Assembly: GCA_964016885.1 (NCBI GenBank)
Contig: OZ024743.1
Location: forward strand, 317,006,001-317,070,000
Length of the DNA: 64,000 nt
Source of the DNA: Eledone cirrhosa
Lineage: Eukaryota
Direction of reading: 5' to 3'
Under the pieces are notes generated by a model that did no database searches, had not been told where the DNA came from, and saw nothing but the letters and a program-made list of their open reading frames with translations. This document shows, one piece after another, positions 1 to 49,122 of this stretch (the first letter of the stretch is position 1; each line of letters opens with the position of its first letter). The translations under genes and the position numbers were made by a program.

Positions 1-64
1 CAATTAAATCAACCCTAGTACATTACTGGTACATATTTTATCAACAGCATATATCAAAACAGAC

Positions 65-1000
65 TTGGGAACTACACGCTGTGTAGACATTTTGAAGGGA
101 GTTAAGCAGGGGGATGTACTATCAGCACTTCTTTTCTGTATAGTTATAGCTGCACTTATCTACCAAACTGAAGAAGAATGTTCCTCTGGCTATCAAATAG
201 GTGGTAAAATCCTATCAAATCTTAGCTATGCAGACGATCTGGCCATCATGAGTTACTCTAGAACTGATCAGCAAGACTTTCTGAATATACTGGCCAAACA
301 TTCGCTGAAGGCTGGCTTAAACATCAACATCTCCAAAACAAAATGTATGACAACTGATAAAAACAATGCCAATCTCCAACTCACGATCTACAACCAGCAA
401 ATTGCTCAAGTTACGGAGTCTGTATATCTCGGTCACAAACTATCATCAAACAACAATGGAATGGTGGCTGCGCAATATCACATTCCTCTAGGTTGGACGG
501 CTTTCAACAAGAACAAGGAAGTACTAACATCAAAACGAGTTTCCTATCATTTGAAGGCTAAGATCTTTGATACTTACATCCTACCAGTTGTGTTATATGG
601 TCTTGACTGTGTTAATTAGATGACAAGGTCACTTCAGAAGCTCTCTACATTCCAGGACCACATCATGAGACTTATGACTGGCAAGCGGCTCAGCGATCGT
701 ATCTGTATCAGTGAGCTGCTCAACATTACCAAATTTAGACCAATTACATGAATTGTCAAGTCAAGAGTACTCAAACTATACGGTCATATAAAAAGATCAA
801 CTCGTGGTGTGAGTATGCCTGGAAGAAAGGTTGGCTGGTAAGAGAAGCAGCGGCCGGCAGCCAAAACGATGTCTTGACAATGTCAATGGACTGGACTTGA
901 TCTTTGCTCTTTGAACTCTGCTGCTGGTGATCAAACTTTGTGGAGAGAGATATCAAATGTTAATGTGCAGTCTGCAACTGGCGGCACTTAGCGTCACAAG
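65..1000 (+). mobile_element. Degenerate non-LTR retrotransposon (RTE-like) RT C-terminal fragment
   Basis: ORF 65-619 has KGVKQGDVLSALLF, YADDL, GLNINISKTK, YLG and LPVVLYG RT motifs; decayed continuation after the stop; sequence differs from the main RTE family in the window. Confidence 0.85.
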
Positions 1001-2792: not shown

Positions 2793-4100
2793 TCATCATC
2801 ATCACCGTTTTACGTTCGTTCTTCCATGCTAGCATGGGTTAGACGGGTTGTCCTGTTGTGGGCAGTGTCTGGTTGGCTGACCATGCCTTGTTCATGCAGG
2901 AACTGATTTTGGCTTGATTTCTACAGCTGGATGCCCTTCCTAACACCAACCTCATTAACAGTGAGTGCTGGGTGCTTTTTCGTGGTGCCTACACGTCCAC
3001 TTTACAGTGTGGGCTGGGTGCTTTTTTGCCGTGGCACCTCCACGAAACACTTTGCAATGGAACGGTGTGGAGGCATATTGTCTGTATGCTTCAGCTTCGG
3101 GTTGTACCCATGAGAGGTCAGGTACTCTGTATTACTGCGTGACGCCAGAGGTCACGGTCGTGTGTCATCGCCTTTGAGAGGTGTAATTGGGTAAGGTCGG
3201 CTTTTATCACCTCATCCCAGGTCTTCTTGGGTCTCCCCACTCCGCGGTTTCCATTGACTTCTAGTGTTCTGCACCTTTTTATGCAGCTGTCATCCTTCAT
3301 ACGCATCACATGTCCATACCAACGCAACCACCTCTCCTGAACACAGCATTTGATTCCTCTTATGCTCAGTCTCTCTCTCAATTCATTTATGCTTTGCCGT
3401 TCGCGTATATTACTATTACACATCCATCAGAGCATGCAGGCTTTGTTTCTTTCTAATCTACGTAAGTCTTCCACCTTCAGCGCCCAGGTCTCACTACCAT
3501 GTAACATTGCTGTTCGGATACATGCATCATACAGTCTGCCTTTCATTTTGAGGGAAAAGCCTTTTGCAGCTAGCAGTGGCAGTAGCTCCCTGAACTTCTT
3601 CCATCCTGTTCTTACCCTAGTTATTGTACTTTCTGAACATCCACCTCTGCTGCTAATTCGGTCACCTAGGTAGCAGAAGCTGTCTACCGTTTCTACAGAG
3701 CCCTCCCAGAGATTGGTGGTACTTGTTTCCTGTGGCTGTTTGCTGCTTGCTGTCCCAGTACAGCTGCTACATGTGAAGCCTATATTCTTAATTAAGCTTC
3801 CTGAGATCCCACTACATCTCTTGTGTACCCATTGTTTGCATTTGGGGCAGAGAATGGAGTTCCTACCTACACCTTTCCTACATACTGAGCAAGGCCATTT
3901 TCCTGAGGAGATCTGGGTTCTGTTTTCTCGTCTACTTACAAGGACCTTAGTCTTTGTTAGGTTGACTTTGAGATCCTTTCTTTCTAGTCCCTGCTTCCAA
4001 GTTTGGAATTTCTTCTCTAGTTCTACCATAGATTCAGCTAGAAGTGCGAGGTCATCTGCATACAGGAGTTCCCATGGGCATCCGGTCTTAAACTCCTCCA
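2793..4100 (-). mobile_element. 5'-truncated RTE-clade LINE (RT C-terminus with PHD-type finger, 3' UTR, (GAT)n tail)
   Basis: ORFs 3427-4128 (ELLYADDLAL, FCYLGD, GWKKFRELLP, AMLHGSETW) and 3118-3423 (RWYGHVMRM, RGVGRPKKTW); (ATC)n at 2793-2803. Confidence 0.95.
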
Positions 4101-6239
4101 CACTATATATAGACATACACACACACATTTACAAAACAACAGAAGGCTGGACTCAAAATATTTTTTTTTTATGTTGCAAAAACACAATACGTATTTCAGA
4201 CGTTAATGTAAGACTAAGGCGACATCATCAGGTGTGGATTGCAAGGATTAGGTCATCAATAACAGGATTACAGTAAACACAAACAGAGAATAGAGAATAG
4301 ACTTGATTTGGAAATGTCCTGTTGCAGTAAACCAGGTCTACTCATTGGTAAACTATGCAACATAAATGGTATATATATATATATTAATATATATAACCCA
4401 TGGTAGCATGGAAAATGGACGTTAAATGATGATGATATATATGTATCTTCTTCTTCTCCCACTTTTTCCTGAGAAGGTTGTGGAGGTAGAGTCCTCAAAC
4501 ACTCCTCTCAGCAGGTCCTGTCAGAAGCAACCATCTCCAACTGATTTGGCTAGATCCCCAAGCAAGACCAGCCAAGCTCATGGATGTTATCCAACCATCT
4601 TTTTGTTCTATGAAACAAAATCAACCACTTTAAAAGATTCCTACTTAAATGAAAATGTTCCAACATAATTTTATATAAGAATCTTTTATGTTGCAAATGC
4701 TATCTTAATGAAATAATTAACCATTTTAGTAAATCATTTCAAATTCTTCATTAATTAATTCAAATAGAATGTAGAAGTATGACAACAAAAGAGTTAATCA
4801 ATCAACAAGATCCGATACCCCATTCCCTGACCGAGTGGGGTGGAACTCGTCAAATCAGACCAAGGAAACAATGTTTCCGTTGGTCTTTCCATTGCTGATA
4901 CTATCTACTGTCAGAAAGAGCAATGTGAAATTAAATCTTGCTCAAGGACATAACACATCGCCTGATTCAAGAATCAAACTTGCAACCTCACTACTGTGAT
5001 TCCAATTCTCTAATTACTCAACCTCAGCCTCATGCCTCCACAAAAAGGGTTAATGGGAGTAGCTTATAGTAAAACATTGAGAAGAGTAGCTTGTGTGAAT
5101 AGGATAATACTTAAGATACAGAAACACATGTAGTAGCTTTAACCCCATTTTTTTCATTTAATTAGAATAGCAGTAATTTAGGTGTAGAATTAAAGATGGG
5201 ACTGATGCTACCATTAAGGTCAACTAGGCATCTGTGTAGGGTACAGTCCTCAGAGAGGTGCATTACTGAACTTCAATGGATTGGAGTTTTATACAAATTT
5301 GTTTATTAAATTAAATATAGAATAATTTTCTGCTATCAATAAATACATTGTTAAACATTGTTGCTGTGTAGCAGCAATGTGAACATATTCAAATTAGTGT
5401 GGAGAGGGTTTTATAGTGTTATTACCTGTCATATGATCTGGCATGGGTGTGTAGGGACTATGTAGTAGTCCCAGGTGCACATTGAAGGGCTATCATAGGA
5501 TACTAGATACCTAGCTACACATTGTAGGGCTAGCCTAAGATACCAGATACTCATGTGCCTGCTCTACTTGCTGTAGCTATAGGCCTTTTTATTTCTTTTA
5601 TTTAATTAGAACAGCAGTATTTTATGTTAAGAATTATAGACATGTCTTTAAATGCTATCTTGAGGTATTTTTACTAACAAGCATTCATTAATAATTATCT
5701 AAGTGTCTACAAATGACTCAGTATCAGAGAAAATCACAAGAGTAAGCAATCTAAGCAAATAATTATGTTGAGGTCATTTTAGTAACTGTTTGTCTCACAA
5801 AGTCATTTATACACTGATTCAGCAGCTAATCAGCTTCACTTGATTACTTCTAGATCACAGTAAAAGCACCCATTTTTTCAAAGACTGTAGAGGTTAAGTG
5901 GACTTCCTACTTTGTTTACTACTTAGATGGCAAAACTGTTGCTTAAAAATCAGCTGCCTGGAATTAAAACACTGATAAATTTGGTGAATTTATACTCAAT
6001 GACTTACACAATTTTCTAAATGTCATTAATTAAAAAGCTCTGGGAAAAAAAAGGACAAAATCATCATCATTGTGATAATTATCATCATCATTATTATTAT
6101 TATTTTACTTCTTCTTTCAATGCAGATATAGGTTAGATGGGTTGCCACTTTCCCGAACTAGAGTGTTTGGAGAACTGTGTCTTACTCTTACATTCCATAT
6201 TTTGGCATGGTTTCTATAGCTGGATGTCCTTTTTACAGC

Positions 6240-18570: not shown

Positions 18571-18660
18571 CTTATAATAATAATAATAATAATAATATAT
18601 GCATTTATGTATTTGTTTTGTAAGATTTTTGATTTTAAATTTTGTCTTGAAACTGCTATT

Positions 18661-18842
18661 GTTATATTTGGGGATGGTCATGTTGCCAGTAAAAAGAAAC
18701 ACATACACCATATGAATTTAACTTTATCTTTATTGCTAGTTATTGGTTGACAAACCAATAACTAGCAATAAAGATGTGAAAATCATATTGTGCCTGTCTT
18801 TTTATTGGCAATACTGGCCCCATAACCATCCCCAAATAAAAC
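18661..18842. repeat. Foldback element with perfect 23-bp central hairpin
   Basis: atctttattgctagttattggtt-gaca-aaccaataactagcaataaagat (18726-18775), extended by ttgccagtaaaaaga/tctttttattggcaa and atttggggatggt/accatccccaaat. Confidence 0.85.
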
Positions 18843-19199
18843 TATATATGATGATATATATATATAACAACAGCACTGGTACCAAACTGTATAAAAACTT
18901 GGATAATATTAGTGGTGTGGAGAGGGGAGAGTAGCATGCATGGGCAACTGTCTTCCACATATCTAGAACTAAATTATCTAATGTATCCTTCCTTTTTTAA
19001 GATGAGATTTCATTTGATAGAGATTTGGGTACTATTTTTACTGAGTAAAATGCCCCACATAGAAACCTCCTTGCACACCCTCAGGGGCCTCATTTTTTAA
19101 AATACATTTTTGTTTTATCATTAGGTTTTTAATTCTTTAACACTAAATCATAAAAAATTATATATGTATAATATATATATATATCATCATCATCATCAT

Positions 19200-19528
19200 T
19201 TCATTTTACGTCCGCTTTTTCCCTGCTAGCAAGGGTGGGATGGGAACTGATTCTGGCTTGATTTCTACAGCTGGATGCCCTTCCTAACACCAACCTCATT
19301 TACAGTGAGTGCTGGGTGCTTTTTTGCCGTGGCACCTGCACGACCACTTTGCAGTGGAATGATATGGACCCCAGTCCCTATCATCTCATTTCTACAGCTG
19401 AGTAAACTGGAGCAATGTGAAATAAAGTGTCTTGCTCAAGGAAACAACACATCACCCGGTCTGAGAATTGAACTCACAACCTTTTGATTGCAAGGCCAAT
19501 GCTCTAACCACTAAGCCATGTGCCTCCA
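19200..19528 (-). mobile_element. CORE-type SINE with RTE tail (third copy)
   Basis: Near-identical to 7417-7740. Confidence 0.85.
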
Positions 19529-19579
19529 TATACACAATGATATTAAATAAATGGAAACTATATCTATAAAACCATATTT

Positions 19580-19638
19580 ATTCTATTATATATATTTCAA
19601 TGGCACCAAAACTTTGGTACGCTCTCATCAGATAAAAT
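19580..19638 (-). ncRNA. Type I hammerhead ribozyme (minus-strand arm)
   Basis: Reverse complement reads attttat CTGATGA gagcgtaccaaagttttggtgccatt GAAA tatata TA atagaat. Confidence 0.7.
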
Positions 19639-19767
19639 ACAAAGTTTGTTTTATAAATATTGACATATCCAGGAAAGAGATGTTAACGGTTCAAGTTTTT
19701 CCTGGATAGTTAAGAACCGTTAAGATCTCCTTCCCGGTTATGTCAATATTTATAAAACAAACTTTGT

Positions 19768-19826
19768 ATTTTATCTGATGAGAGCGTACCAAAGTTTTGG
19801 TACCCTTGAAATATAAATAATAGAAT
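19768..19826 (+). ncRNA. Type I hammerhead ribozyme (minimal, PLE-type)
   Basis: Stem I attttat/atagaat; CTGATGA 19775-19781; stem II gagcgtacca..tggtaccctt; GAAA 19808-19811; short stem III; predicted cleavage after AUA at 19819. Confidence 0.78.
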
Positions 19827-19962
19827 TAATATGGTTTTATAAATATAGTTTCCATTTATTTAATATCATTGAATATTATACTCCAGAAAACTGTTGAGTG
19901 CTTCAAATCAGTTACAAACATTTATATTTGTTGAATTACCAACAAATTAAATATCCCTTTTG

Positions 19963-19997
<35 letters not shown>

Positions 19998-20105
19998 GAT
20001 TCCAGTTCCTTAGAGGACTAACAACACACCCAGGAGCTGGACATATCGATGAATTAACAGGGTAGAACCCATTACAACACCATGTTTTCCTGTTTTTTCT
20101 GCCTA

Positions 20106-20172
20106 AATTCTTACTGCCTGATGAGGTCACAGCCAATAATGGCTGTCACTGAAATATGTATAGCAGCGAATT
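20106..20172 (+). ncRNA. Type I hammerhead ribozyme (stand-alone)
   Basis: aattc-tta-ctgc CTGATGA ggtcacagcca-ataa-tggctgtcact GAAA tatgta TA gcag-c-gaatt, followed by AATAAA at 20175. Confidence 0.85.
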
Positions 20173-20271
20173 GGAATAAACGAAGCTAACTTTAACATGT
20201 TTGACTTACACTTATTATTTTTAATGCACTGGGTAATTGCTGGCCTTGTGCCTAACGTAGAAACAATTATT

Positions 20272-20304
<33 letters not shown>

Positions 20305-22125
20305 TTTATCATTAACATTAATATAAAAAAATAATAATTATATTTTTTTAGAGAAGGGCCTTAAATTTCACACAGCTTAGGGCATCAGCAGATGAAAGTT
20401 CGACCCTGCTCGCTTGAGTTCTTGGGGTGGACGGAAGGTCCTGTACCACATTAGCAAGACATTTTTGAAAAGTACTACAACTAGATCTCATTAAACTGAA
20501 AGTCCTTAGCCTAATACTGCAAATTTTCATGATAATCTGTCCACTAGTAAAGACACTATAAACATTTAAATTAAGAAATCTTTATTTAGATATTTTCTGC
20601 TAAATCATTACAGGATCATCATCATCATTTAACATCCATTTTCCACACTAGCATGGGTTGCTCATATAGAATTGTTAAAAGTTATAGATATGACAGATTT
20701 CTGATTAATTTCATACAACATTTTCTAAGTACGTGTAAATTATTCTAAGTGTACAGAGACAGTATAGGATTTAACCAAAGTTCTGTTACTGCTACATTTT
20801 GGGATCAATATAATTGATTTTAAGGTGATGCCCCAGCATGGCCACTGTCTAATGACTGGAACCAAGTAAAAGAATAACCACAAAACGAAAATAGTTTGAA
20901 GCAGTACCAATGCCATATAAAATGAAAATGGTAGCTGACAAAAGTGTATTCTGTATGTATCCACTTTAACCATTTACATTTCTCTATATTTACTCTTGTA
21001 TTTTCACCATAAACACTCACATAATATTGAATCTTTGAGATTTTGATATTATTTATTTTGAGAACAATACCTTAACATAAGTATGAGTGGCCAGTTACAG
21101 CCGGTTTGAACAGAAAGAGGTGAGAGAATTCTGGCTGGATATGGCCGGTTTAAATGTACACAGGTCCATTGCTACCATTAAGGTCAACTAAGCAGCAGCC
21201 TAGGGTGAACACCTCAAAGGGAGAGGGGGGGGGATTACTAAACCTTAAAGTATTACAGTTTTTACAAATTTGTATAATTAAATGAAATATATTATAATTT
21301 CTTGCAATTAAAACTAAATCACTAAACATCTTTGTCACATAGTAGCTTTCATAAAATATCTTAAGTGACAAAGGGGGGTCATATAGTATTATGATCTCTC
21401 ACACAATTTAGCATGAAGCAGTGTGGACTGTGTAGTGGAAAATGCAGGCTTAATAATTTTCTTAGTGAGGTCAAAACAAGAAGTATCTAATATCAGGCTT
21501 GTCAGTTTATCAAACTATAATTTGAAATTATTTCATTTGGGAGAAGGGGTACACATTGTAGGGGTAGCCTAAGGCATTGAATACCTAGGCGTCGGTCTTA
21601 TGTACACATCTACATTTACACATATATTCAACTGTATGAAATTTATCAAATATGACATATGGTGCTTAATGAATCAATGAGTAATTTAACATTACTGTTT
21701 CACTAATTAGTTCTAGAAACCAGTAAAGTAGATTCTTTCTTTTCAAGAATTTAATTTCAACAAATAAGCCTTTTTTCCCCAAGGAGATTATGGGTTATAT
21801 AATTGTATGCATAAATCTGAAATTACTTGACTTTTGCACTATCTGACTTAAAAGTTAAAATCATAATTTGATAATTTGTAAGCCAGTACATGCATGGTGT
21901 GAAATATATAATATGTTCTCTATATCAGACCAATTTATTCTCAGTTTCAAATGACATACATATATAGGCACAGGCATGGCAATGTAATAAAGAAGTTTGC
22001 TTCATAATGACCATGTGACTTTAGGTTCACTCCCACTGTGTGACATCTTGAGCATGTGTGTTCTACTGTAACCTCAAGTTGACCAATGCCTTGTGAGCGT
22101 AAGTTGGTAAATGGAAACTGCAGAA

Positions 22126-22163
<38 letters not shown>

Positions 22164-22559
22164 ACAGTTAATTAAACAGAATGACAAGTTCTATCCACTG
22201 GTGAACCACAAAACATAAATGAATATATATATATTTCCAAACAGTGGTGGTACACAGGACGAGACAACGGAAAAAAAAACAAAAAATAGACGGTCCAATC
22301 TCCTCAGTCAACTTTGGAGATCAATACAGTTTTGAAGCTTTATACATATATATATATACATTTTTCAGTGCAGACAATTTTAATTTTTTTTTTTTTTTCT
22401 CATCATATTTTGACATTAAAAAAATGTCTTTTACGAATTATTATTTGTTTGAGATGAGAACTGTCTCACTCATGCAAGCATGGAAAATAGATGTAAAAGG
22501 TGATTATGGCGATGATCATCATTATCATCATCATCATCAACATCATTATCATCATCATC

Positions 22560-22758
22560 ATCAACATTTTACGTCTGCTTTTCCCTACTTGCAAGGGTGG
22601 GACAGGTCTTATTAAGCACGGCATCTCTCCATTCATCACCTTTGTCATCTCCTCTGTGAGCTTCAGCAATCTGAGGTCTGCTCTCATCACCTCCCCCCAT
22701 ATTTTTTGTGGTCTTCCTCGACTGCTTCTTCCTTCTACTGGGATTTCTTGGCACTTTT

Positions 22759-22760
<2 letters not shown>
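22560..22760 (-). mobile_element. Short RTE 3' fragment
   Basis: Encodes VEGRSSRGRPQKIWGEVMRADL; ATG-repeat tail. Confidence 0.75.
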
Positions 22761-22793
<33 letters not shown>

Positions 22794-23612
22794 GTGTATG
22801 TATATACATTATATATATACACACACACACACGTGTGTGTGTATGTATGACCAACCCTTGCTTGCAGGGAAAATAGACATTAAATGATGACAATGATTTA
22901 TATATATATAAACAAAATTTATTTTCGCTCTTATGAGGCTGTTTGCTTGTAAACAAACTGAATATTATTATTCACTCATGAATATATTCATAATCCTAAT
23001 CATTTTACATCTTGCTCATACATTCCATATTTGGCTTGGCTTCTATAGCAAGATGCCTTTTCTCCCTCACACCAATCACTTTATATTCGTGTCTATGTTT
23101 ATGTCCCATATGTTATGGGTTTAACAAAATAGACATCGATTATATAAGTAACAGATTTGAAAAATATGTACTAAGCACAATATGATTGACTCAATCTATT
23201 TGAAGCAATGCTCCACTACAGCCAAACCCTAATGACTGAAACTGGGAAAAGAATAAAAACATAGTTTGACATTACGTAAACCCAGAACATATATGATGTG
23301 GAATGAATATGTCTATCTGATCAATTTGTTTTTAGTTTCAAATGACATACATACATGCATCCATGGGTTTTTAACTCTTGATTGTGTCATAGGGACGTCA
23401 CAGTGAGATATATTAGACACAGGCCTTGCTGAGCCAATCCTTCTCCATGTCAGAACACAGCTGATTACTTCCACGGAGAGAGGATCGACCCCAATATTGG
23501 ACTGGTACTTTATCATCCTCAAAAGAATGAAAGGCAAAGTTGACCCCAGCAGGATTTGAATTCAGAGTGCCCAGAGCCGGAACAAATACCATAAAGCATT
23601 TCTATCTGACAA

Positions 23613-23930
23613 TCTAAAGACTGCCACTTTGCCCCCTTTCAAATGACACATACACCCATACTCCATCTAAAGACTGCCACTTCAGTCCATTTCAAATGAC
23701 ATTCATACAGCCATACTCCATCTAAAGACTGCCACTTTTCCCCCTTTCAAATGACACATACACCCATACTCCATCTAAAGACTGCCACTTTGCCCCCTTT
23801 CAAATGACACATACACCCATACTCCATCTAAAGACTGCCACTTCGGTCCATTTCAAATGACACATACACCCATACTCCATCTAAAGACTGCCACTTTTCC
23901 CCCTTTCAAATGACATACCTACAACCATAC
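23613..23930. repeat. 53-bp minisatellite, about 6 units, ABCABC pattern
   Basis: Units start at 23613, 23666, 23721, 23774, 23827 and 23880 (tctaaagactgccactt...tttcaaatgacacatacacccatactcca). Confidence 0.95.
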
Positions 23931-24598
23931 CCAAATCTGTTTTCAGTTATTATTTATAAGTTAATGTCATATGAAAACCAATATTGTTTTCTTAATGTCT
24001 CTGTGATGTAAGACTGTTTGTATTTGTATCTCCAACTCAGTAGGAGAGTGAGTCTTTTTTACACCAGTTGAGAACAAAAACAAAAAAAAAGGGGGAAGGA
24101 TCACAACTCCTGGTAGAGTTGCAGGGGCGCATGCTGTACTGACACACACGGTGGTGTGTCTAGGGCATTTCAACCTTGCAGAACCCATCCTTCTCTAGGT
24201 CTGAACACAGCCAACGATTTCTTCCAAAGAAAGAGAGAGAGACAGACAGAGACAGAGAGAGACAGAGACGCACAGAGACAGACAGACAGAGAGAGAGAAA
24301 GTGAGAGATATAAAGAGGAAGAATCGACCCCAATATCTGACTGGTACTTTATCAACCTTGAAAGGATGAGAGGCAAAGTTAACTTCGGAATTTGAACTCA
24401 GAACACAATGAGCTGGAACAAATAGTAAGGCATTAAATCTGATGCCCCTTTATAATTCTGTCAATTCACTGCCTTAGTAGGGAACAAAGGAATACTAAAA
24501 TATGTAAACATGATGTGTTTCCAGTATTCTTCCATTCCATTTTGTCTGAAAAATGAGGCCATTTTTATTGTGAAGAGAATCCAGATCCATTCTTTGCA

Positions 24599-25387
24599 TC
24601 AAACAGGTGAGGAAATATTTTGTCTGTGTTCTTTTGGTCCCAAAACAACATGGGCCTCGTTTATCTCTATATTTTGTTGGTATAAAAAATCTAAAACTGG
24701 AACCAGTAGAAGACAAATTGTGGCATTTAGTAACATAAGTGGGCCTGCAAAATATCGATAGTTTGTGTAAATAGAACTAACACCCATATTTATGTCACTG
24801 ACACATGGCTCAATGTTTGTGGACTCATTAAATTGTGTGAAATAAAGATCGTATCCTTGCATACAATCCCTCCTGATAAAATTTCTGTAGAGAAAACAGT
24901 AAGGATACAATTGTGTGATACCATGCCAGCATTTTATAAGGTTAATGTCTGTGGTGGAAGAATTTTGTTGGCATATTTGGTCTGAATTGAATATACGAAA
25001 GTAGTCAGTGAATAGAATTGGTTCGGCATAGATTGACATTAAACCAAAATATATTTCTGCAGTCATAGCAATAGCCAATAAGATAGCAGAAGCTCGGCGT
25101 CCAAGAAATCCAAATCCAAATACTGCAATACAAATAACCAAGCAACCAAGATAAGCTGGCACCACTAACCCACTACAAGGGTGTGACTTTAAAGAGAAGG
25201 CACAAGATATGTTTTCTAGATTACTGCGACAAGAGAGCAACAGCCCTATTCCAAGACCAACTTGTGATAATCCAGCAAAGAGGATAAAGAAGAAAATTAT
25301 CCGAGTTGTGAGTTGGTTACATTTAGCTAAACTGTTATTCTCAGAGACAGGAATTAGCTTTTTATCGTGGAAATTTCCAAGCTTCAT
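24599..25387 (-). CDS. Divergent tetraspanin-like four-TM protein (262 aa, single coding exon)
   Basis: Long non-repetitive open frame from the ATG at 25387 (MKLGNF). Three clustered hydrophobic helices, an ~85-aa Cys-containing loop with N-glycosylation sequons (NSS, NES), a fourth helix and a short tail. Polar residues in TM1/3/4 (Q, E, N) as in tetraspanins. Confidence 0.75.
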   Translation of the reverse strand: MKLGNFHDKKLIPVSENNSLAKCNQLTTRIIFFFILFAGLSQVGLGIGLLLSCRSNLENISCAFSLKSHPCSGLVVPAYLGCLVICIAVFGFGFLGRRASAILLAIAMTAEIYFGLMSIYAEPILFTDYFRIFNSDQICQQNSSTTDINLIKCWHGITQLYPYCFLYRNFIRRDCMQGYDLYFTQFNESTNIEPCVSDINMGVSSIYTNYRYFAGPLMLLNATICLLLVPVLDFLYQQNIEINEAHVVLGPKEHRQNISSPV

Positions 25388-25411
25388 TGTGATATTTTTT
25401 CTACAGCAGAT

Positions 25412-25440
25412 CTGTTGAAAAAAAAAACAACAAAAAATCA
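25412..25440 (-). other. Probable 3' splice acceptor upstream of the tetraspanin-like ATG
   Basis: Minus strand ttttttgttgttttttttttcaacAG|atctgctg; exon would begin at 25411, 24 nt before the ATG, implying an upstream exon. Confidence 0.65.
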
Positions 25441-26080
25441 ATCAAAATTTGTACATCTTTACAAATCAATTAACAAATTATTATTAATCATAATTGTTTC
25501 TACTTTAGGCACAAGGCCAGCAATTACCCAGTGCATTACTGGTACTTTATTTTATCGACCCCGTAAGGATGAAAGGCAAAGTCAACCTCGGCGGGATTTG
25601 AACTCATAATAATGCTTTTATAGCCCTGGTACCCATAAATAATTCTTCAAATGAGATGTCTGTTTACAGTGTGTATGTGATCAGTGTTTACTACTCACTG
25701 TTTAAGGATTAGTTCACCTTGTGGTTGATGTTAGGACAGGTATCCGGCCATAGAAACCAAGTCAAAATACAGATCCATATGAGCAAAACATCGTTACCTG
25801 ACCTGAATTGTCACATGACGAGGCAAACCTTCTAACCCATGCAAGTGTGGAAAATGTATGTTAAATGATGATGATGATAAACACTAATATAAACAGTTTC
25901 AGTGGTTTCAGGTGATTTGGCATTAAAAAGGTTAAACAGAGCATTTATTTATTTTAAAAATTATAGATCAAGATTATTTTAATATAATTTTCTGAACATC
26001 TTGTTCATACGAAGATACTGAGTTAAATCATAGCTAAAAGATTTGTGTGTGTGTGTAATATATATATATATATATATATA

Positions 26081-26525
26081 TATAAACGTTTGAATATGTG
26101 TAATAAGGCCAAAACAATGCAGTTATGGACATAGAAAAAGGAATGCAATAGTGAAAGATATTGATGAGAATTCGTCTTTCACCTTGAATTTATTTAAATG
26201 TCCTTAATTTTCGAGATAATATCTCTTCTTCGGAGGGAAGTAAAGGTCTCAAACCAGCGTCTTTAAATCTCTAGCCAAGCCATGGCTTGGCTAGAGATTT
26301 AAAGACGCTGGTTTGAGACCTTTACTTCCCTCCGAAGAAGAGATATTATCTCGAAAATTAAGGACATTTAAATAAATTCAAGGTGAAAGACGAATTCTCA
26401 TCAATATCTTTCACTATTGCATTCCTTTTTCTATGTCCATAACTGCATTGTTTTGGCCTTATTACACATATTCAAACGTTTATACCTCATTACACAATGC
26501 TTCAAGTGAACTATAACCTCCTCCT

Positions 26526-26530
<5 letters not shown>
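26081..26530 (+). mobile_element. Perfect 404-bp palindrome with hammerhead-like core and tail, family B
   Basis: 26081-26484 is self-complementary about gcca|tggc (26282/26283) with no mismatch found by eye; tail has TGCTTCA (26498-26504); (TA)n on both sides. Confidence 0.75.
26327..26364 (+). ncRNA. Variant or degenerate hammerhead-like motif
   Basis: tccct CCGAAGA a gagat-att-atctc GAAA at TA agga, then AATAAA; U4C core change, an extra A, and very short stems I and III. Confidence 0.4.
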
Positions 26531-26566
<36 letters not shown>

Positions 26567-26569
<3 letters not shown>

Positions 26570-27482
26570 TCATCATCATCATCACCGTTTTACGTCCGTT
26601 CTTCCACGCTAGCATGGGTTAGACGGGTTGTCCTGTTGTGGGCAGTGTCTGGTCGGCTGACCATGCCTTGCTCATACAGGAACTGATCTGGCTTGATTTC
26701 TACAGCTGGATGCCCTTCCTAACACCAACCTCATTTACAGTGAGTGCTGGGTGCTTTTTCGTGGCGCCTACACGTCCACTTTACAGTGTGGGCTGGGTGC
26801 TTTTTTGCCGTGGCACCTCCACGACCACCTTGCGGTGGGGGGGGGGGGGGGGGCATATTGTTTATATGCTTCAGCATGTACCCATGGGAGGTCGGGTACC
26901 CTGTATTACTGCGTGACGCCAGAAGTCACGGTCGTGTGTCATTGACTTTGAGAGGTGTAGTTGGGTAAGGTCGGCTTTTATCACCTCATCCCAAGTCATC
27001 TTGGGTCTCCCCACTCCGCGGTTTCCATCAACTTCTAGTGCTCTGCACCTTTTTATGCAGCTGTCATCCTTCATACGCATCACATGTCCATACCAGCGTA
27101 ACCGCCTCTCCTGCACGCAGCATTTGATTCCTCTTATGCTCAGTCTCTCTCTCAATTCATTTATGCTTTGTCGTTCACGTATATTACTGTTACACATCCA
27201 TCGGAGCATGCAGGCTTCGTTTCTCTCTAATCTACGTAAGTCTTCCACCTTCAGCGCCCAGGTCTCACTACCATGCAACATCGCTGTTCGGATACACGCA
27301 TCATACAGTCTGCCTTTCATTCTGAGGGAGAAGCCTTTTGCAGCTAGCAGTGGTAGTAGTTCCCTAAACTTCTTCCATCCCGTTCTTACCCTAGTTATTG
27401 TACTTTCTGAGCACCCACCTCCGTTGCTAATTCGGTCACCTAGGTAGCAGAAGCTGTCTACTGTTTCTACAGGGCCCTCCCT
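26567..27482 (-). mobile_element. 5'-truncated RTE LINE, intact reading frame
   Basis: ORF 26871-27548: FCYLGD, AMLHGSETW, RRLRWYGHVMRM, GRPKMTW; (ATC)n tail; very similar to 2793-3705. Confidence 0.95.
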
Positions 27483-30247
27483 ATATAATGTCAAAATATA
27501 GCAGACAAAAATAAAGTATAAGCAGATTAAAAATTTGCATAAGCACAAAAGATAAGGTTAATAGTCCAGCCAACACACTGTTTTAATCTTATGCCTATAT
27601 AAAAGTTTAGACCAAAATCACGCAAGTGAAGTTGTTGGTGTGTGCATGTGATCACATACATATAGTCTTTATGAGATTTTGCATAGGTTTTGTTTACCTA
27701 ATTTCACTCATAAGGTTTGGAAGGATAACCTAACTCAATGGTAGAAGATCCTTGGTGAAGATACCAGGTATCTAGCAGTATTTTACATACAACTATGATT
27801 GGAAAGTAAACTTTTAAGCTATTCATGTGCTTGGAATTCTTAACTACACAGTCACATCTGCCACTTTTATCTAATTTAAAAATCCTATTTTATATTTTTA
27901 AAAAAATTGCATAGACTTCATTAGGCAATTGTTATAGAATCAGAAAAAATACAGCAACAGCTGTTTTAAGATCATTTTTTCCTTGCTAAAGCTGGGTTTA
28001 GCCTTGCTGGCCCAATGACAAGCTTACTCCATTTTGACCTATCATCCACATCCCATCTTCATTAACCCCTTCACTTTCATTTCCTCCTTCATCATCTTTA
28101 GTCATGTCTTTCTTGGTTTTCCCCTACCTCTACTTCAGTCATGGGCAAACTGTGGCCTGTTTTGGCTTTCTGAATGGCACACCTAATTTCAAAATTGCCT
28201 TGAATTTTTTTAGTAGTGCGGCCCACTTCATGATGAGCCACATCATATGAAGCCCACTGCCTTTTTTGGCTGCCTATGTTGCTCTACTTCCTTCCACATT
28301 CATTTCAATCACTCCTCTTACCCAGTCACATATCATCAATATACTTTATACTCTGATTTCAAATCCTGCTGAGGTTAACTTTACCTTTCATTCTTCCAGT
28401 GTTAGTTGATAAAATGAGGTACTAGACCAGGGTGGTAGATTCACTAGAGGGATGAGCAAAATGCTTTGCAGTATTTATTCCAGTTCTTTACATTTTGAGT
28501 TTATTTGCAATGACCCTGATGCCAAGCTGTGTCAGCCTTGCCTTTCCCTAAGGACAAAATCAGTGGTACAGAGAGGGGGGGGGGGTTGTCTTACTTTTAA
28601 ATATATATTCACCATAGTCACATCTCATAAATATCTATTCACCATAGTCACATAAAAATATTTTCTCTAAAAAAAAGTCTAAAGTTTGTCTCAAGCCCAG
28701 AGACTCATCAGATTGGTGCTTATCTCAGTTTCCATGGCATAAAGCAGCTCGGAGTACAAGATTTCCCCCATTGCAGGGTTAAAACCTCCAGCTATTGCTT
28801 GTACTCATTTTCAGCTGAGTATACTGGAGCAATGTGAAAGGAATCAAACCCACAATATCTTGATCGTAAGTCATACATCCTTACCACTAGGCCATGTGCC
28901 TCCACATCATTTTCTCTAGGAGTAAAGTATTTGTAGAATCAACTCACTCAACCTTAATACACACTTCTTTCTTTAAATCGATCAACAAGATCCTGGACCT
29001 CATTCACTTACCAAGTGCGGTGGAACTTGTCACATCAGATCAAGGAAACAATGTTTCCATAGGTCTTTTCATTGCTGACTATCTACCAGTTGCAACTCCT
29101 GGCAGAAAGAGCAATGAGAAATAAAGTGTCTTGCTCAAGGACCTAATGCATCACCCGGTCTGGGAATCAAACTCACAACTGGGAATCCAATTCTCTAACA
29201 ACTAAACCATGTGCCTTCACACTAAAAAAAATGAAATTGCCTCATCTATCAATACACCCTCTCTTTCTGGATGTTACCTTGAGTTACGTTCTTTTGTTGG
29301 ATACAATTAGCTTGTCACATAGCACATTAAATTTTGGGTACACCCCTTGACTATATTAAGAATATTCTTGAAGCTTTTGATCACATGACAGCAGATTATA
29401 GAAATAGACAAAAACTATAAGCTAGCAGAGGGGTCTTAAAAATCTTTCCCAAATCCATATCAGTCAGATTCCTATGCATCCCTTTTTATTCCTGCCAACT
29501 AGATATCTCATTTTGATTTCTCTTCAAGACATGAAGTAATGTGTCTTCTTTAGAAACAACAATTATATTTTCATAAAGGTATTTATTCATTTGGCTCAGC
29601 ATTCATTAATACTCAATCCACATTTTCATTGTAATTCTAAAAAGGTCTAAGGCTCATCAGGCTGGTGCTTATCTCAGTTTCCATGGCATTAAGTGACTGA
29701 GAGTACAAGACTGGACAGGACACCAGTCCATCGCAGGGTTTTAACCCTATTGATGCTGGTACTCATTTTCAGCTGAGTAAACTGGAGCAACATGAAATGA
29801 AGTGTTTTGCTCCAGAACACAACACAAAACCCAGTCTAGGAATTGAACCCACAACATTATGATCCTAAGTCCCATGCCCTTATCACTAAGTCACATAATT
29901 AATGTTGGATATTTTCTGTTTATAACTTTTAGAACATAGTAATGTTATATTAACCTTTAACATCATCATTGTTTAACATCCATTTTTCCTGCTAGCAAGG
30001 GTTGGACTTGTCACATATCAATCAGTACTCTAACTCCTAGGTGGACCAGTGACCCGACATATAAGGAGACACTCTACCAAGTGTGTTTTATCACGGGACC
30101 AATAATATCCTTGGCATAGCTAAAGAGTGTTCCTGGCCCTTTATGTGTCAGGTGTTCTAAGCTGGATGCCCTACTTATAACCAACCACTTTACAGCAGTG
30201 TACTGTGTGATTGTTTATCATATAGATCACCAACACTGTATATAGTA

Positions 30248-30249
<2 letters not shown>

Positions 30250-30285
<36 letters not shown>

Positions 30286-31876
30286 AATTATTGTGTACAG
30301 TGCTCAGGTGCACTACAACTCATCAAAGGTGCATGTATAGTACATAGAATAATGTACAAATGTCAGGAAAATAAACAGTGTATGAGTCATGATATAATAA
30401 CAATAACAAAATATTGTGCACAGTGCCCAGGTGCACCACAACTCATCAAAAAAGTGCATGTACAGTACATAGGGCAATGCACAAACATCAGTAAAATGAA
30501 CAGTGCACGAGTCATGATACACACATGTGTGCATGTGTATGGAAGGGGTACATCAGGTGTAGTTTTGGCGTATTTTGGGAAGCATGAGTGTCTTAAAGGA
30601 TGCAGTGTCTCGGCAGCTAACAATTGACGCAGGCAGTTTGTTCCATGCTTCAGCAACTCTGAGCGTGAAAAAATGTCTGCGAAAGTCATGGGAGCTGTGC
30701 TGTTTTCTTATCTTGTAGGCATGTCCACGTGTGTTAGACACATGGAGATCAAAGAGGCGCTCAGGGTTGCAGTTGGCGAGATGGTTAAAAACTTTGTGGG
30801 TATTCACCAAGTCCATTGCCAGACGTCGGAGCTTCAATGAATCCATGCCCAGGGAAGCAAGGCGTTCAGAGTATGGTAGGTGTCTGATGGAGGGTATGCG
30901 CTTGGTTGCACGTCTCTGAACAGTTTCCAGGAGGTCAATATTCCGAGCAAGATAGGGGTTCCAGACTGATGATGCGAATTCCAAGTGTGGTCGCACCATA
31001 GCTGTATACAGTTTTAAATAGATGGCTGGAGAGCGGCTAACAAAGGTCTTGCTGAGTGATGCCAAGACACCCTCGGCCTTCTTGACAATCTTAGAGACAT
31101 GCTTTGTCCAACGCAAATCGTTGCTGACAGTAATGCCCAGGTCACGTTCACAAGAGGACTTTTTGATGTCAGTGTTGTGGAGGGAGTATGTGGACGCTGG
31201 ATTTTTCCTTCCAAAATGCATGGTGGTACACTTGTCCACAGCCAGCTTCAGTTGCCAGTCTGTGATCCATTGCTGCATTGTGTCCAGGTCTGATTGTAGG
31301 AAAGAGTTGTAAATTTCAGGATCAGTCCTTTTGATTTTAAGGTACAGCTTGATGTCATCTGCATATTTTAGTACCGTGGCATTCTGTAAGTTGGCATCTA
31401 TGTCATTAATATATGCCACAAACAAAAGAGGACCAAGAACAGATCCCTGTGGTACACCAGATGACATCTCATATGGTGAAGAATGCTGTCCTAGAACCGT
31501 GACTACTTCCTTTCGGCTGAGAATGAAGGATTTCAGCCAGTCGAAAAGATCATCCCTCACACCCATTGCAGAGAGTTTTGCCATAAGTCTTTTGTGTGGC
31601 ACAGAATTAAAAGCCTTAGCAAAGTCAAGGTAAACAACATCCACCCATGAGCCACTGTCAGTGATCCGGGTGATGTCCTCAAGAAACTCGATAAGCTGAT
31701 CACAGCAGCTGGAGTTAGGGATAAATCCAAACTGTGAGGGCCGGATGAGGCTGTGAGAGCTCCAGAAGTTCCAAAGTGTTTCTCTGACACAGGATTCCAT
31801 CAGTTTGGCCATACAGCTAGTAAGACTGACTGGACGATAGTTGACAGGTGACATGCGGTTGCCCTTTTTGAACAGG
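30250..31876 (-). mobile_element. 5'-truncated CR1-type LINE with (TTA)n tail
   Basis: 433-aa intact RT ORF; 3' UTR with a duplicated ~126-bp unit; (AAT)n at 30250-30282 on the plus strand. Confidence 0.95.
30553..31854 (-). CDS. CR1-type reverse transcriptase (truncated ORF2)
   Basis: NYRPVSLTS, QFGF, VVYLDFAKAFNSVPH, SGVPQGSVLGPLLF, YADD, ERDLG, LETVQRRATK, NTRGH, RVAEAWNKLP. Confidence 0.93.
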   Translation of the reverse strand: MSPVNYRPVSLTSCMAKLMESCVRETLWNFWSSHSLIRPSQFGFIPNSSCCDQLIEFLEDITRITDSGSWVDVVYLDFAKAFNSVPHKRLMAKLSAMGVRDDLFDWLKSFILSRKEVVTVLGQHSSPYEMSSGVPQGSVLGPLLFVAYINDIDANLQNATVLKYADDIKLYLKIKRTDPEIYNSFLQSDLDTMQQWITDWQLKLAVDKCTTMHFGRKNPASTYSLHNTDIKKSSCERDLGITVSNDLRWTKHVSKIVKKAEGVLASLSKTFVSRSPAIYLKLYTAMVRPHLEFASSVWNPYLARNIDLLETVQRRATKRIPSIRHLPYSERLASLGMDSLKLRRLAMDLVNTHKVFNHLANCNPERLFDLHVSNTRGHAYKIRKQHSSHDFRRHFFTLRVAEAWNKLPASIVSCRDTASFKTLMLPKIRQNYT

Positions 31877-32678
31877 TGATAAGAGGTTTCTATTTATACA
31901 GTTTTCCTTGCTTGTTATTTAAGAAACTGTTTTGCTGATTTTCCACTCTCAAACAGTTTTGCTACATACATATGAGTAAGATGTAGTCTCCTGACCTGAA
32001 TTGTCTCATAATGTGACAAGCCGTCTAAACCATGCAAGCATGGAAAATGGTCGTTAAACGATGATGATTTATATACACACATACGTATATCTTCACCACT
32101 GTTGGACAGGTTACTATGTTGAGACAAATCAGATCAAGTGACTATGTCTAGCTCATACGGATCTGTATTTTAGTTTGGTTTCTATGGCTGGATGCCCTTC
32201 CTAACACCAATCATGATACAGTCTGGACTGGGTGCTTTATATTGTAGCACCAAAACAACCACCTAATAAAGTGTACTGGGTGCATTTTCATCATGGTACC
32301 AGCACAACCACCTAACAGAGTAGACTGAGTACTTTTTTGTTGAGTCACCAACACAACTGCCTTACAAGGTAGATTGGTGCTTTTGTTGTTGAGTTACCAA
32401 CACAACCACCTAACAGGGTGGACTAGATGCTCTTTATTGTGGCAGGCCCCTAGGAGGGCAGGTGTGGACCATATCCAGCTTTCCATGCACATAAATGTGT
32501 TGGACTGGAAATATATAGCAGGTGTGTGGTGGAGTACATCATCATCAGTTAAACATCTAATTCACACACTCCCAGGGCAGATAGGCTGTCATGCTCTGAG
32601 ACTAGACCAGACAGGAGACCATGTCTAGTTCATACACTTTGTTTTTGTTTCTCTATGTTGGCATAGACTGGATGGAAT

Positions 32679-32720
<42 letters not shown>

Positions 32721-32819
32721 ATTCCATCCAGCCCATTATATATATATATATATATATATATCTTATATATAATAAATAAGAGAGACGGTTTTATTCATAC
32801 ATCTTCATTTTATTATCTA

Positions 32820-32892
32820 ATTCATTATATGTATTTCAAAGATACAAAGGTAGTTATATAATAACCACCTTACACGTTTTCTTCAGATGAAT
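32820..32892 (-). ncRNA. Type I hammerhead ribozyme (minus-strand arm)
   Basis: Reverse complement reads attcat CTGAAGA ...aaggtggtta-ttata-taactacctt... GAAA tacata TA atgaat. Confidence 0.75.
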
Positions 32893-32984
32893 CAAGTTGT
32901 GTTTTTCTATTCATTGATATGTTACTGGTTTAACGTGTCATTAACCTTGCAGTAGCATATCAATGAATAGAAAAACACATCTCG

Positions 32985-33057
32985 ATTCATCTGAAGAAAA
33001 CGTGTAAGGTGGTTATTATATAGCTACCTTTGTATCTTTGAAATACGTATAATGAAT
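32985..33057 (+). ncRNA. Type I hammerhead ribozyme with palindromic stem III
   Basis: Stem I attcat/atgaat (6 bp perfect); CTGAAGA 32991-32997; stem II aaggtggtta/tagctacctt; GAAA 33040-33043; ATACGTAT palindrome; predicted cleavage after 33051; AATAAA at 33063. Confidence 0.85.
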
Positions 33058-34049
33058 TAGATAATAAAATGAAGATGTATGAATAAAACCGTCTCTCTTA
33101 TTTATTTTACTAAAACTCCAGGCAATACTTTACAAAGAACATCCTAAGGAATACAAATGGTAGAGTGCTTCACATCTGTTTATGAAAAGGTCGGCAGATG
33201 TTTGATCAACCAACTTTCATCAACTAAATAATATATATATATTGTGAGAACTGATTTCAAATTGCTGAGACTCACAGAGGAGATGACGAAGGAATGCAAT
33301 GAATGGAGAGATGCTGTACTGAAAAGAACCCATCTAACCCATGCAAGCATGGAAAAGTGGACATAAAAACGATGATGATGATGTGTATTATGAAGTGGTA
33401 TTTAGTTAAACACAAACTATTTTCAGATATGTTTAGAGCAGGGACCCCAAAGGGAATCAATTGGATTTTTGAGTCAAAACCTGACATTTGTATAAGAAAT
33501 GAAAATAGATAAAATAATGGTTTCTGATTTAGGCACAAGGCCAACAATTTAGGTGGAGAAGGAAAGTTGATTAAATTAATGCCAGTGCATTACTCATATG
33601 TGAAAATGTTGATGACGATATATATATGTGTGTGTGTGTGTGCGCACACACACAAATGCATATGTGTAGTTATATTAATAAACACAAAAATGCATACATG
33701 TGTATTAGATCCATAGATGTGGTTGATAGATTCTGCTACCTAGTTGATATAATTAATAGTGAAGGAGGGTGAGGGTGCTCCGAGACCATAGTAACTAGAA
33801 TAAGGATAGGATGGAAGAAGTTTAGTGAAACACTCCCTCTATTGACAACAATTATATATATATCTATAAACATATATATATACATACACACGCATATATA
33901 TATATATATATGACTATATACATATATACACCCCACATACATATATATACACACATACATGCACATATACATATGTATATACATACACATATACATGTAT
34001 ATATATATAAATACACATTTATATATATATATTTGTATATATATATATA

Positions 34050-42414: not shown

Positions 42415-42532
42415 AGTTATGTAATAAATAACATAAGATAATTATTTCATTTACCAGTGGTTTCTTAGATATCTGTCCTCAAAAAACCATTGGTAAATGA
42501 AATAATTATCTTATGTTGTTTATTACATAACT
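42415..42532. repeat. Foldback with 49-bp arms
   Basis: agttatgtaataaataacataagataattatttcatttaccagtggttt / aaaccattggtaaatgaaataattatcttatgttgtttattacataact. Confidence 0.9.
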
Positions 42533-42660: not shown

Positions 42661-42836
42661 GTGGATTCCCGACGTATATCGGGAGGTGGCCACAGTTAAA
42701 AAAGGTACTCAATACGTTATTATAGAAATGACTTTTACAGGACTAAAACTGTTTCATTCGTAAGAAATCATTAGTACTTTCCTGGTGATTTCTTACGAAT
42801 GATACAGTTCTAGTCCTGCAAAAGTCATTTCTATAA
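42661..42836 (-). mobile_element. Foldback plus tail element, family D (3 copies in window)
   Basis: 51-bp arms 42720-42770 and 42786-42836; tail and arm homologous to 18260-18396 and, in opposite orientation, 8095-8230. Confidence 0.75.
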
Positions 42837-49042: not shown

Positions 49043-49122
49043 ATACCAAAGTTTTGGTACCCTTGAAATATATATAATAGAATAAATATGGTTTTATAAA
49101 TATAGTTTCCATTTATTTAATA
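49043..49122 (+). mobile_element. Truncated copy of family A (3' half of hammerhead plus AATAAA)
   Basis: taccaaagttttggtacccttgaaatatatataatagaataaatatggttttataaatatagtttccatttatttaata matches 19787-19865; between TA tracts. Confidence 0.9.

Follow-up and report, generated by a model that had tools for sequence, protein, structure and literature searches.

Hammerhead-bearing hairpins in (TA)n tracts of the Eledone cirrhosa genome as probable twin cDNAs of Penelope-like element ends

Background

The closest described systems for the elements considered here are the Penelope-like elements (PLEs), in particular those with hammerhead ribozymes in their pseudo-long terminal repeats (pLTRs). All of the following are described in print as PLE traits: 5' copies in inverted orientation, a tail on one side only, (TA)n targets and pairs of hammerheads on opposite strands. 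One survey describes the origin of PLE tandem and inverted structures as unresolved (PMC8557442). Here we analyze three hairpins with such traits in a 64-kb stretch of the genome of Eledone cirrhosa (assembly GCA_964016885.1, contig OZ024743.1, positions 317,006,001 to 317,070,000, forward strand). We call this whole stretch the window and number it from its first nucleotide; E1, E2 and E3 denote its 19.5-kb, 26-kb and 32.8-kb hairpins, copies of which were sought in 3.0 Gb of genome.

Previous studies furnish several points of reference. Hammerhead pairs on opposite strands 100-700 bp apart have been reported in Schistosoma, and low activity has been reported for minimal hammerheads (PMC4209133). 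In canonical PLEs, solo pLTRs have been ascribed to recombination or deletion and head-to-head junctions to self-priming (PMC3846280, PMC11167929). The account of an anole PLE describes a protein, predicted to be a dimer, which cuts and extends both strands of its target (Frangieh et al. 2024, PMC11167929), and reverse transcription that starts at two internal sites bounding the tail; hammerhead mutants of this element still insert, the hammerhead being dispensable in vitro.

Hairpins that match the ends of PLEs

We consider it probable that each hairpin is a pair of twin, head-to-head cDNAs of one short stretch of RNA, namely the 5' leader of a PLE mRNA. The three inverted repeats announced by the original prediction are present: E1 (19530-19692/19714-19876; 163-nt arms, 93% identity, 21-nt spacer), E2 (26081-26282/26283-26484; 202-nt arms, 100% identity, 0-nt spacer), which is a perfect 404-bp palindrome, and E3 (32768-32927/32950-33109; 160-nt arms, 96% identity, 22-nt spacer). 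In each, a tail-less arm on the minus strand faces a tail-bearing arm on the plus strand. The tail-less arm of E1 (19535-19692) is an inverted Hydra-type pLTR, putatively a cDNA from an internal reverse transcriptase (RT) start. Its tail-bearing arm (19714-19871) is followed by a single-copy tail (19872-19965, plus strand), which is 5' untranslated region (UTR) in relatives bearing an open reading frame (ORF), and by the (TA)n target (19965-19994). At the head-to-head junction of E1 (19693-19713) the tail-less arm reaches to -79 and the tail arm to -61, positions here and below being counted from the hammerhead core, with negative values 5' of it. E2 lies between (TA)n tracts at 26058-26084 and 26529-26567, its tail-less arm (26081-26282) being a 100% mirror of its tail-bearing arm (26283-26484), while E3 comprises a tail-less arm (32768-32927), a tail-bearing arm (32950-33109) and a single-copy tail (33110-33230, plus strand). 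The (TA)n tracts claimed to adjoin the elements are found at their flanks.

The proposed link to PLEs, with minimal type I hammerheads and a microsatellite target, proved right. Each arm matches the end of an ORF-bearing PLE within the same genome. Over 242 nt, the right arm and tail of E2 share 99.2% identity with the pLTR end of one such copy (L241), whose family has an 859-aa ORF carrying RVT_1 and GIY-YIG. In tandem copies of the E2 family the tail leads directly into the ORF, and the E2 tail (26485-26528, plus strand) is itself the start of the parent ORF, with its ATG at 26497 (MLQVNY...). A TGCTTCA motif had been assigned to the tails of all three elements; it is shared by E1 and E3 only, because in E2 these letters belong to the ORF's beginning (ATG-CTT-CAA), and the bare heptamer occurs 17 times in the window. 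Continuation of the tail into 5' UTR or ORF in tandem copies is seen in the E2, F4 and F6 families, and homology of the tail motif suggests the same for E1 and E3.

The tail-bearing arm of E1 matches the repeat downstream of the ORFs in three copies, L270 (90.6%), L272 (94.0%) and L248. These ORFs are broken; their identity to P0002, an intact protein of 800 aa from family F4, goes up to 52%, a value that the E1 parent reaches over residues 199-551. P0002, as read by eye, has DKT, a CxCx5C linker, CxxC and CxH, no CCHH and an ORF shorter than 3 kb, with RWK present as RWT, and a protein atlas look-up for the Hydra-type RT gave HTH_animal/GIY-YIG clusters at 0.96-0.98. E3, with its tail, shares 85% identity with a repeat that lies 3' of the remnant of a Hydra-type ORF (L277), and in the genome search its specific exact motif pattern matched the window only; with these as its best relative and sole exact match, E3 is old. 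Motifs read by eye, rather than a tree, point to Hydra-clade PLEs as the parents of both E1 and E3, and their arms, previously described as unrelated, are related to each other.

The parent protein of E2, P0003, has GPKF, DKG and a CxxC..H..H endonuclease, lacks the Hydra-type DKT and endonuclease, and is only 22% identical to P0002, placing it, as judged from sequence, in a different PLE lineage. Hence, two PLE lineages yield one layout. Neptune-type PLEs, found via GIY-YIG (10,595 first-look candidates in the genome), were considered as parents and rejected; their copies share the architecture of the hairpin families without being their source. One Neptune-type family (L102, L103, L107, L109, L115) carries in its hammerhead core (TTGAAAA...GAAA CCGG TA) the U3-A8 covariant that has been reported for the Schistosoma Cercyon elements.

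Long copies form the same head-to-head structure, with arms of up to several kilobases; examples are L234 (3.1 kb, 99.8%) and L113 (3.3 kb, 99.7%). Many E2 arms lie within head-to-head insertions 0.9-4.4 kb across with ORFs inside, and several long E1 arms have upstream regions too truncated to show an ORF. Taken at the level of sequence, then, the hairpins are best described as end pieces (pLTR plus tail) of ORF-bearing PLEs and not as a separate non-coding class.

It is scarcely credible that they are instead fold-back artefacts of assembly or amplification, or a foldback DNA transposon with terminal inverted repeats. Such an origin would suit the perfect palindrome of E2. Contigs from three runs of one sample give E2 high coverage, but no contig extends across it, a result that speaks neither for nor against this junction. 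However, a fixed outer end and a one-sided tail recur at dozens of loci, the arms of E1 and E3 have separately decayed to 93-96%, and the arms map to RT-encoding PLEs and not to transposase elements. A foldback element or miniature inverted-repeat transposable element (MITE) was likewise rejected on account of the one-sided tail outside the repeat and the RT-encoding parents; target-site duplications are unreadable inside (TA)n.

One template, two separately ending arms

Comparison of the two arms across copies, in sets chosen by likeness to the window copies, bears on how the hairpins arise. In E2, 46 variants are mirrored on both arms as against 23 confined to a single arm, arms are 99.4% alike within a copy versus 97.5% between copies, and the closest arm is the copy's own left arm in 19 of 22 cases. 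In E3 the signal is weaker, at 87% versus 81% (8 copies). This suggests that both arms of an insertion derive from one template.

The ends of the arms, on the other hand, vary in both directions. With one duplicate dropped (L028) and L027 left out, the tail-less arm extends at least 5 nt further 5' in 13 of 28 E1 and 5 of 22 E2 hairpins, and the tail arm does so in 9 and 8 of them, respectively. Further, in samples taken in genome order (42 E1 and 28 E2 arms, one member of each double-counted hairpin having been dropped), 9 E1 and 3 E2 arms face an inverted tail end without a mirrored hammerhead, and the gap between hammerhead cores varies among copies (127-157 nt in E1, 83-113 nt in E2). Since both polarities of arm length are seen, one strand folding back on itself does not account for the arms, whereas two separately primed cDNAs can. 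The independent arm ends agree better with the two-start, two-strand chemistry of the anole element than with a single fold-back.

A plausible sequence of events can be proposed on this basis. The RT-endonuclease would nick both strands of a (TA)n tract, one nick priming at the tail's outer end and its counterpart at an internal site immediately 5' of the tail. The two cDNAs would then extend toward the 5' end of the RNA and be joined there, often via a few shared bases. Priming at the first tail of the mRNA, about 250 nt from its start, would give a hairpin of 430-470 bp in which the outer end is fixed, the tail is on one side only and the centre hardly varies; priming at a downstream tail would give long, variably truncated copies. 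The hammerhead on both strands would be a geometric consequence of this arrangement, and in the Hydra-type families the internal start is likely to be positioned by a bulged RNA hairpin in the tail.

The candidate for this signal is the motif ACTC-CAG..CTG-NN-GAGT-GCTT, which forms a bulged hairpin in E1, E3 and sister Hydra-type families. It lies at 19880-19905 in E1, and its halves in E3, at 33115 and 33163, flank a longer loop; in tandem copies it falls within the 5' UTR. Its inner pairs covary over 64 distinct variants (position 2: AT 50, GC 9; position 3: GC 28, GT 15, AT 10), while the outer ACTC/GAGT was set by the search pattern and is therefore uninformative on pairing. Energetically this hairpin is weak (-2.5 kcal/mol in E1), and the tail-less arm mostly stops 0-11 nt 5' of it. 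These features make it a candidate signal for the internal RT start in Hydra-type families.

A sharp 5' ceiling

The E1 family displays a sharp 5' ceiling: in a score-selected set, one arm reaches -75 to -83 in 27 of 28 hairpins and none goes beyond. Of the 42 E1 arms sampled in genome order, 26 stop between -37 and -91, whereas no end falls between -92 and -140. For E2, the interval from -39 to -69 holds the ends of 7 of 28 arms and that from -70 to -212 holds no end; most arms (21 of 28) run through the ceiling site. The original prediction had held that random centres would reduce the elements to ordinary 5'-inversion debris; the centres indeed differ between copies, but they are not random. 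The ceiling would correspond to the 5' end of an RNA, probably at the pLTR start site. In most long copies checked, the E1-type ceiling has 51-65 nt upstream of it an octamer, ATTTGCAT, which we take to be a promoter element. That the E1 ceiling stems from a splice acceptor was ruled out, as the ends lie 9 nt upstream of the AG. An initiator-like site has been described in the pLTR of a rotifer PLE (PMC3846280).

ORF-bearing copies furnish a related view of this site. Among 30 such E2 copies, 16 end between +172 and -33, two at -97 and -124, and 12 at -220 or further 5'; the same three classes in F4 hold 12, 3 and 15 of 30. The thinning of these copies past the ceiling site is compatible with an RNA end without being decisive.

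These distributions also bear on the view that the hairpins are ordinary 5'-truncated PLE insertions, with centres clustered by an RT pause or by a self-priming palindrome near the 5' end of the pLTR, which we judge improbable. It would accommodate both the E2 arms that pass through the site and the ORF-bearing copies, which show no pile-up there, and self-priming on an antisense template has been proposed for head-to-head PLE junctions (PMC3846280). Against it stand the near-single-base ceiling of E1 with an almost empty stretch just upstream; moreover, a single fold-back predicts that one arm is always the longer, while arms of both polarities, as well as partners consisting of a tail only, are observed.

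Several points weigh against the twin-cDNA interpretation itself. An RT pause site would give a similar ceiling, and ORF-bearing copies show no pile-up at that site. The sets used for arm variants and arm ends were selected for resemblance to the window. Mirroring is weak in the older E1 (23 variants mirrored versus 88 on a single arm, with the copy's own arm closest in 10 of 29), and gene conversion within the hairpin could also give rise to mirrored variants. No close ORF-bearing parent of E3 was found in the genome, the best match being the 85% one noted above. Finally, in a tree of E2 arms (64 rows, 22 of the short ones having been picked for their resemblance to the window; L036 and L217 represent one locus, and the row L236_3 is actually a 5' pLTR), short and long labels remain clustered (11 changes versus 20 when shuffled), and several short copies are nearer to other short copies than to any sampled long copy.

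Abundance, and whether short hairpins propagate themselves

The families concerned are abundant. Exact 28-mer and 32-mer arm patterns gave 1,414 (E1) and 2,463 (E2) matches in the genome; a tight E1/E3-type hammerhead pattern gave 54,366 as against 0 for the reversed control, and the tail pattern ACTCC(R)..GAGTGCTT gave 41,503 as against 174 in the control. Full hairpins, i.e., arms with a mirrored hammerhead within 330 nt, account for only 6 of 42 E1 and 2 of 28 E2 arms in the genome-order samples, while short forms make up 26 of the 42 E1 arms. A fixed replicating unit, which the top-scoring whole-element matches had suggested, was rejected: a whole-element query returns look-alikes by construction, and the genome-order samples overturned this effect of score selection.

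These numbers are pertinent to the idea that the short hairpins now propagate by themselves, as non-autonomous elements of a SINE-like (short interspersed element-like) or retrozyme-like kind, with short copies as the source of transcripts and with mobilisation in trans. We regard this as unlikely, though it has several points in its favour: the dominance of short forms in E1, the existence of some E2 short copies that do not differ among themselves and are 0.5-1% away from the closest long copy in the sample, and a 344-bp hammerhead tandem array; further, rotifer pLTR sequences are reported to suffice for mobilisation in trans (PMC3846280), and retrozymes have been proposed as PLE derivatives (bioRxiv 10.64898/2026.07.22.740005). 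However, the short copies retain nothing upstream of the ceiling or downstream of the tail, and in the anole PLE the protein-binding region lies downstream of the tail (PMC11167929). In the E2 tree, short copies are interspersed with long ones in both main subfamilies, the well-supported (starred) branches force at least five changes between short and long labels, and three short rows are identical to a long row. Hairpin junctions are not inherited, and the array junction is restricted to one locus. Additionally, some short copies (L043, L050) have a few ORF bases past the usual tail end, as would result from a template that continued into the ORF. Origin as a PLE by-product is the simpler reading compared with an independent family.

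The array in question (L379, G000:C4:15418300-15426500) is one (TA)n insertion with about 16 plus 3 head-to-tail 344-bp units of the E2 family, the blocks of units being placed head to head and the tail present on one side only. Its units begin at about -60 and extend about 100 nt into the ORF, and its junction has 18 of 18 matches at this locus and none elsewhere in the genome. It looks like a retrozyme-type array or a product of rolling reverse transcription. A different pattern is seen in L382 (G000:C1:195537000-195538600), where tandem 80-bp repeats comprise the E2 tail and about 35 nt of ORF; a second copy, L380 (C2:180287500-180289000), jumps at the same ORF position, and these repeats suggest repeated template jumps at the tail. 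Among E1 copies, a triple separated by (TA)n (L101, G000:C11:42912536-42913971) was rejected as a rolling-circle product, as its members are identical down to shared decay mutations, indicating local duplication or an assembly repeat, and E1 repeats at 111.9 Mb of C1 turned out to be larger segmental repeats.

On the assumption that the hairpins are by-products, one could go further and imagine that PLE proteins routinely act on the 5' leader of the mRNA encoding them, from the start set by the conserved tail hairpin, and seed thousands of perfect, promoter-less 160-200-bp hairpins, that these supply a large share of the long double-stranded RNA used in A-to-I editing or in small interfering RNA feedback on the parent, and that some occasionally escape as circular retrozymes, as in the 344-bp array. 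We put this forward as speculation and think it rather doubtful.

The hammerhead motifs

Four motifs in the 64 kb fit a type I hammerhead descriptor (cores at 19775 and 32991 on the plus strand, 19631 and 32886 on the minus strand), against a background of 0.04 per shuffled window (100 block shuffles). As claimed, E1 and E3 have a hammerhead on both strands, with a CUGANGA/GAAA/UH core, stems I and II and a palindromic stem III. The plus-strand motif of E1 (19768-19826; core 19775, GAAA at 19808) has one mismatch in stem III and a predicted cut after 19819, its minimal type I mirror (19579-19639, minus strand) having a palindromic TATATA stem III. That of E3 (32984-33058) has a TACGTA stem III and a predicted cut after 33051, its mirror spanning 32817-32895 on the minus strand. 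The cut sites agree with the 5' ends predicted earlier at 19820 and 33052. The variant core announced for E2 is likewise present, at 26332 (plus) and 26233 (minus): a minimal hammerhead (26329-26363, plus strand; mirror 26202-26236, minus strand) with CCGAAGA core and AATT stem III, which deviates from the type I consensus by U4C and a 3-bp stem I. An Rfam search of the window, and of the right arms of E1 and E3 alone, gave no hammerhead at E<=10; the matches obtained were AT-repeat microRNA look-alikes. AATAAA, said to follow the fold, is commoner there than the 2-5% expected by chance per 30 nt, and no poly(A) tail was seen in any copy viewed.

Covariation in stems I and II is seen across a set of 160 distinct motifs; as relatives of one another, these are not independent. 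In pair counts taken from anchored motifs, 606 of 640 stem I cells are paired versus 569 +/- 3 in shuffles, a pyrimidine mismatch is kept at stem II position 4, and stem III is a self-complementary six-base palindrome, the R/Y alternation of which was fixed by the search pattern. The covariation across families indicates that the fold is under selection somewhere, and this selection is accounted for by the parent PLE. From their sequence, the E1/E3-type motifs fit minimal hammerheads that would depend on dimerisation for the predicted cleavage.

The original prediction envisaged that the whole palindrome replicates, as a distinct non-coding unit whose rod-like transcript gates the ribozyme by antisense pairing. 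Read-through RNA is indeed predicted to form a very stable rod (-221 to -352 kcal/mol, versus -40 to -50 for one arm plus tail), and the covarying stems speak for selection. Nevertheless, the junction differs among copies and is not inherited, by which the model is largely refuted, full hairpins are a minority, the selection on the fold is explained by the parent, and the arms match ORF-bearing PLEs; we consider it very improbable. As the junction is not inherited, the rod that is predicted to sequester the ribozyme would be a consequence of the structure and not a design.

Other sequences of the window

A short tail-less stub of the E1 family lies in (TA)n at 49044-49122 (plus strand); it begins within stem II and lacks the CUGAUGA half of the hammerhead. 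Left of E1, a tRNA-like stretch at 19461-19518 (minus strand; Rfam 28.5 bits versus a cut-off of 29) is likely a SINE head, E1 being in the adjoining TA run. In the left flank of E3 (32668-32731), a 15-bp inverted duplication of unique flank surrounds a (TA)n tract and possibly reflects target DNA folded back at insertion. Four further short palindromes (118-190 nt, 70-87%; 42415-42532, 42720-42836, 18657-18846 and 1602-1730) are probably shorter PLE stubs of other families; the one at 42.7 kb resembles a repeat that bears CTGATGA...GAAA elsewhere. Unrelated to the hairpins are RT fragments of non-LTR (non-long terminal repeat) elements at 30553-31893, 26871-27557 and 3427-4128 (minus strand) and 8-619 (plus strand), which we take to be CR1-like and RTE-like, and a single 262-aa open frame from ATG at 24599-25441 (minus strand), hydrophobic and cysteine-containing with no Pfam match, which could be a host membrane-protein exon.

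Comparison with known systems

In Hydra-clade PLEs (Craig et al. 2021, PMC8557442) one finds the C-terminal endonuclease, DKT, CxCx5C linker, CxxC and CxH of the E1-type parent, together with the pLTR hammerhead, (TA)n insertion, inverted 5' copy and one-sided tail. The consulted text of that study describes few families, with tails of 30-40 nt, whereas the genome studied here has the 54,366 Hydra-type hammerhead pattern matches given above and tails of about 90-120 nt; the conserved tail hairpin and the discrete short class are seen here and not in that text. Canonical C-terminal endonuclease-bearing (EN+) PLEs (Arkhipova et al. 2013, PMC3846280; PMC11167929) resemble the present elements in a pLTR and tail spanning the first ORF codons, in head-to-head junctions, solo pLTRs and two RT starts bounding the tail, and E2 fits this layout, its 44-nt tail holding the ATG. 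In contrast to the parts of those accounts considered, ORF-less two-armed inserts are frequent here, the 5' ceiling is sharp and either arm ends independently of the other.

Metazoan PLEs have minimal hammerheads (Cervera and de la Pena 2014, PMC4209133) that share with ours a type I core, a long stem II, a palindromic stem III and thousands of dispersed copies, and the differences from what is described there are the six-base palindrome of stem III and the pyrimidine mismatch at stem II position 4. Non-LTR retrozymes (PMC7761336; bioRxiv 10.64898/2026.07.22.740005) are likewise short, non-coding, hammerhead-bearing and derived from PLE pLTRs. However, they are described as head-to-tail arrays with at least two hammerheads on the same strand, while the window elements have one per strand, head to head; only the E2-family array presented above has the retrozyme arrangement.

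Searches of the open literature, which also covered cephalopod hammerheads, yielded only the works cited here; a short hairpin class, a sharp 5' ceiling, independent arm ends, a covarying tail hairpin and a Hydra-type expansion of this scale were not found in it, although Repbase/Dfam, subscription papers and supplements may already contain the families. In annotation, such hairpins are best assigned to the PLE families from which they come; labels such as MITE, microRNA precursor or new class of ribozyme should be avoided. The genome offers thousands of young PLE insertions with separately readable arms, names a candidate cis-element for RT initiation in the Hydra clade and shows a very large Hydra-type expansion. 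The hairpins are largely explained by published PLE biology, to which they add the sharp 5' ceiling, genomic evidence for two independent cDNAs, a candidate start hairpin of the Hydra type and the scale of the Hydra-type expansion.

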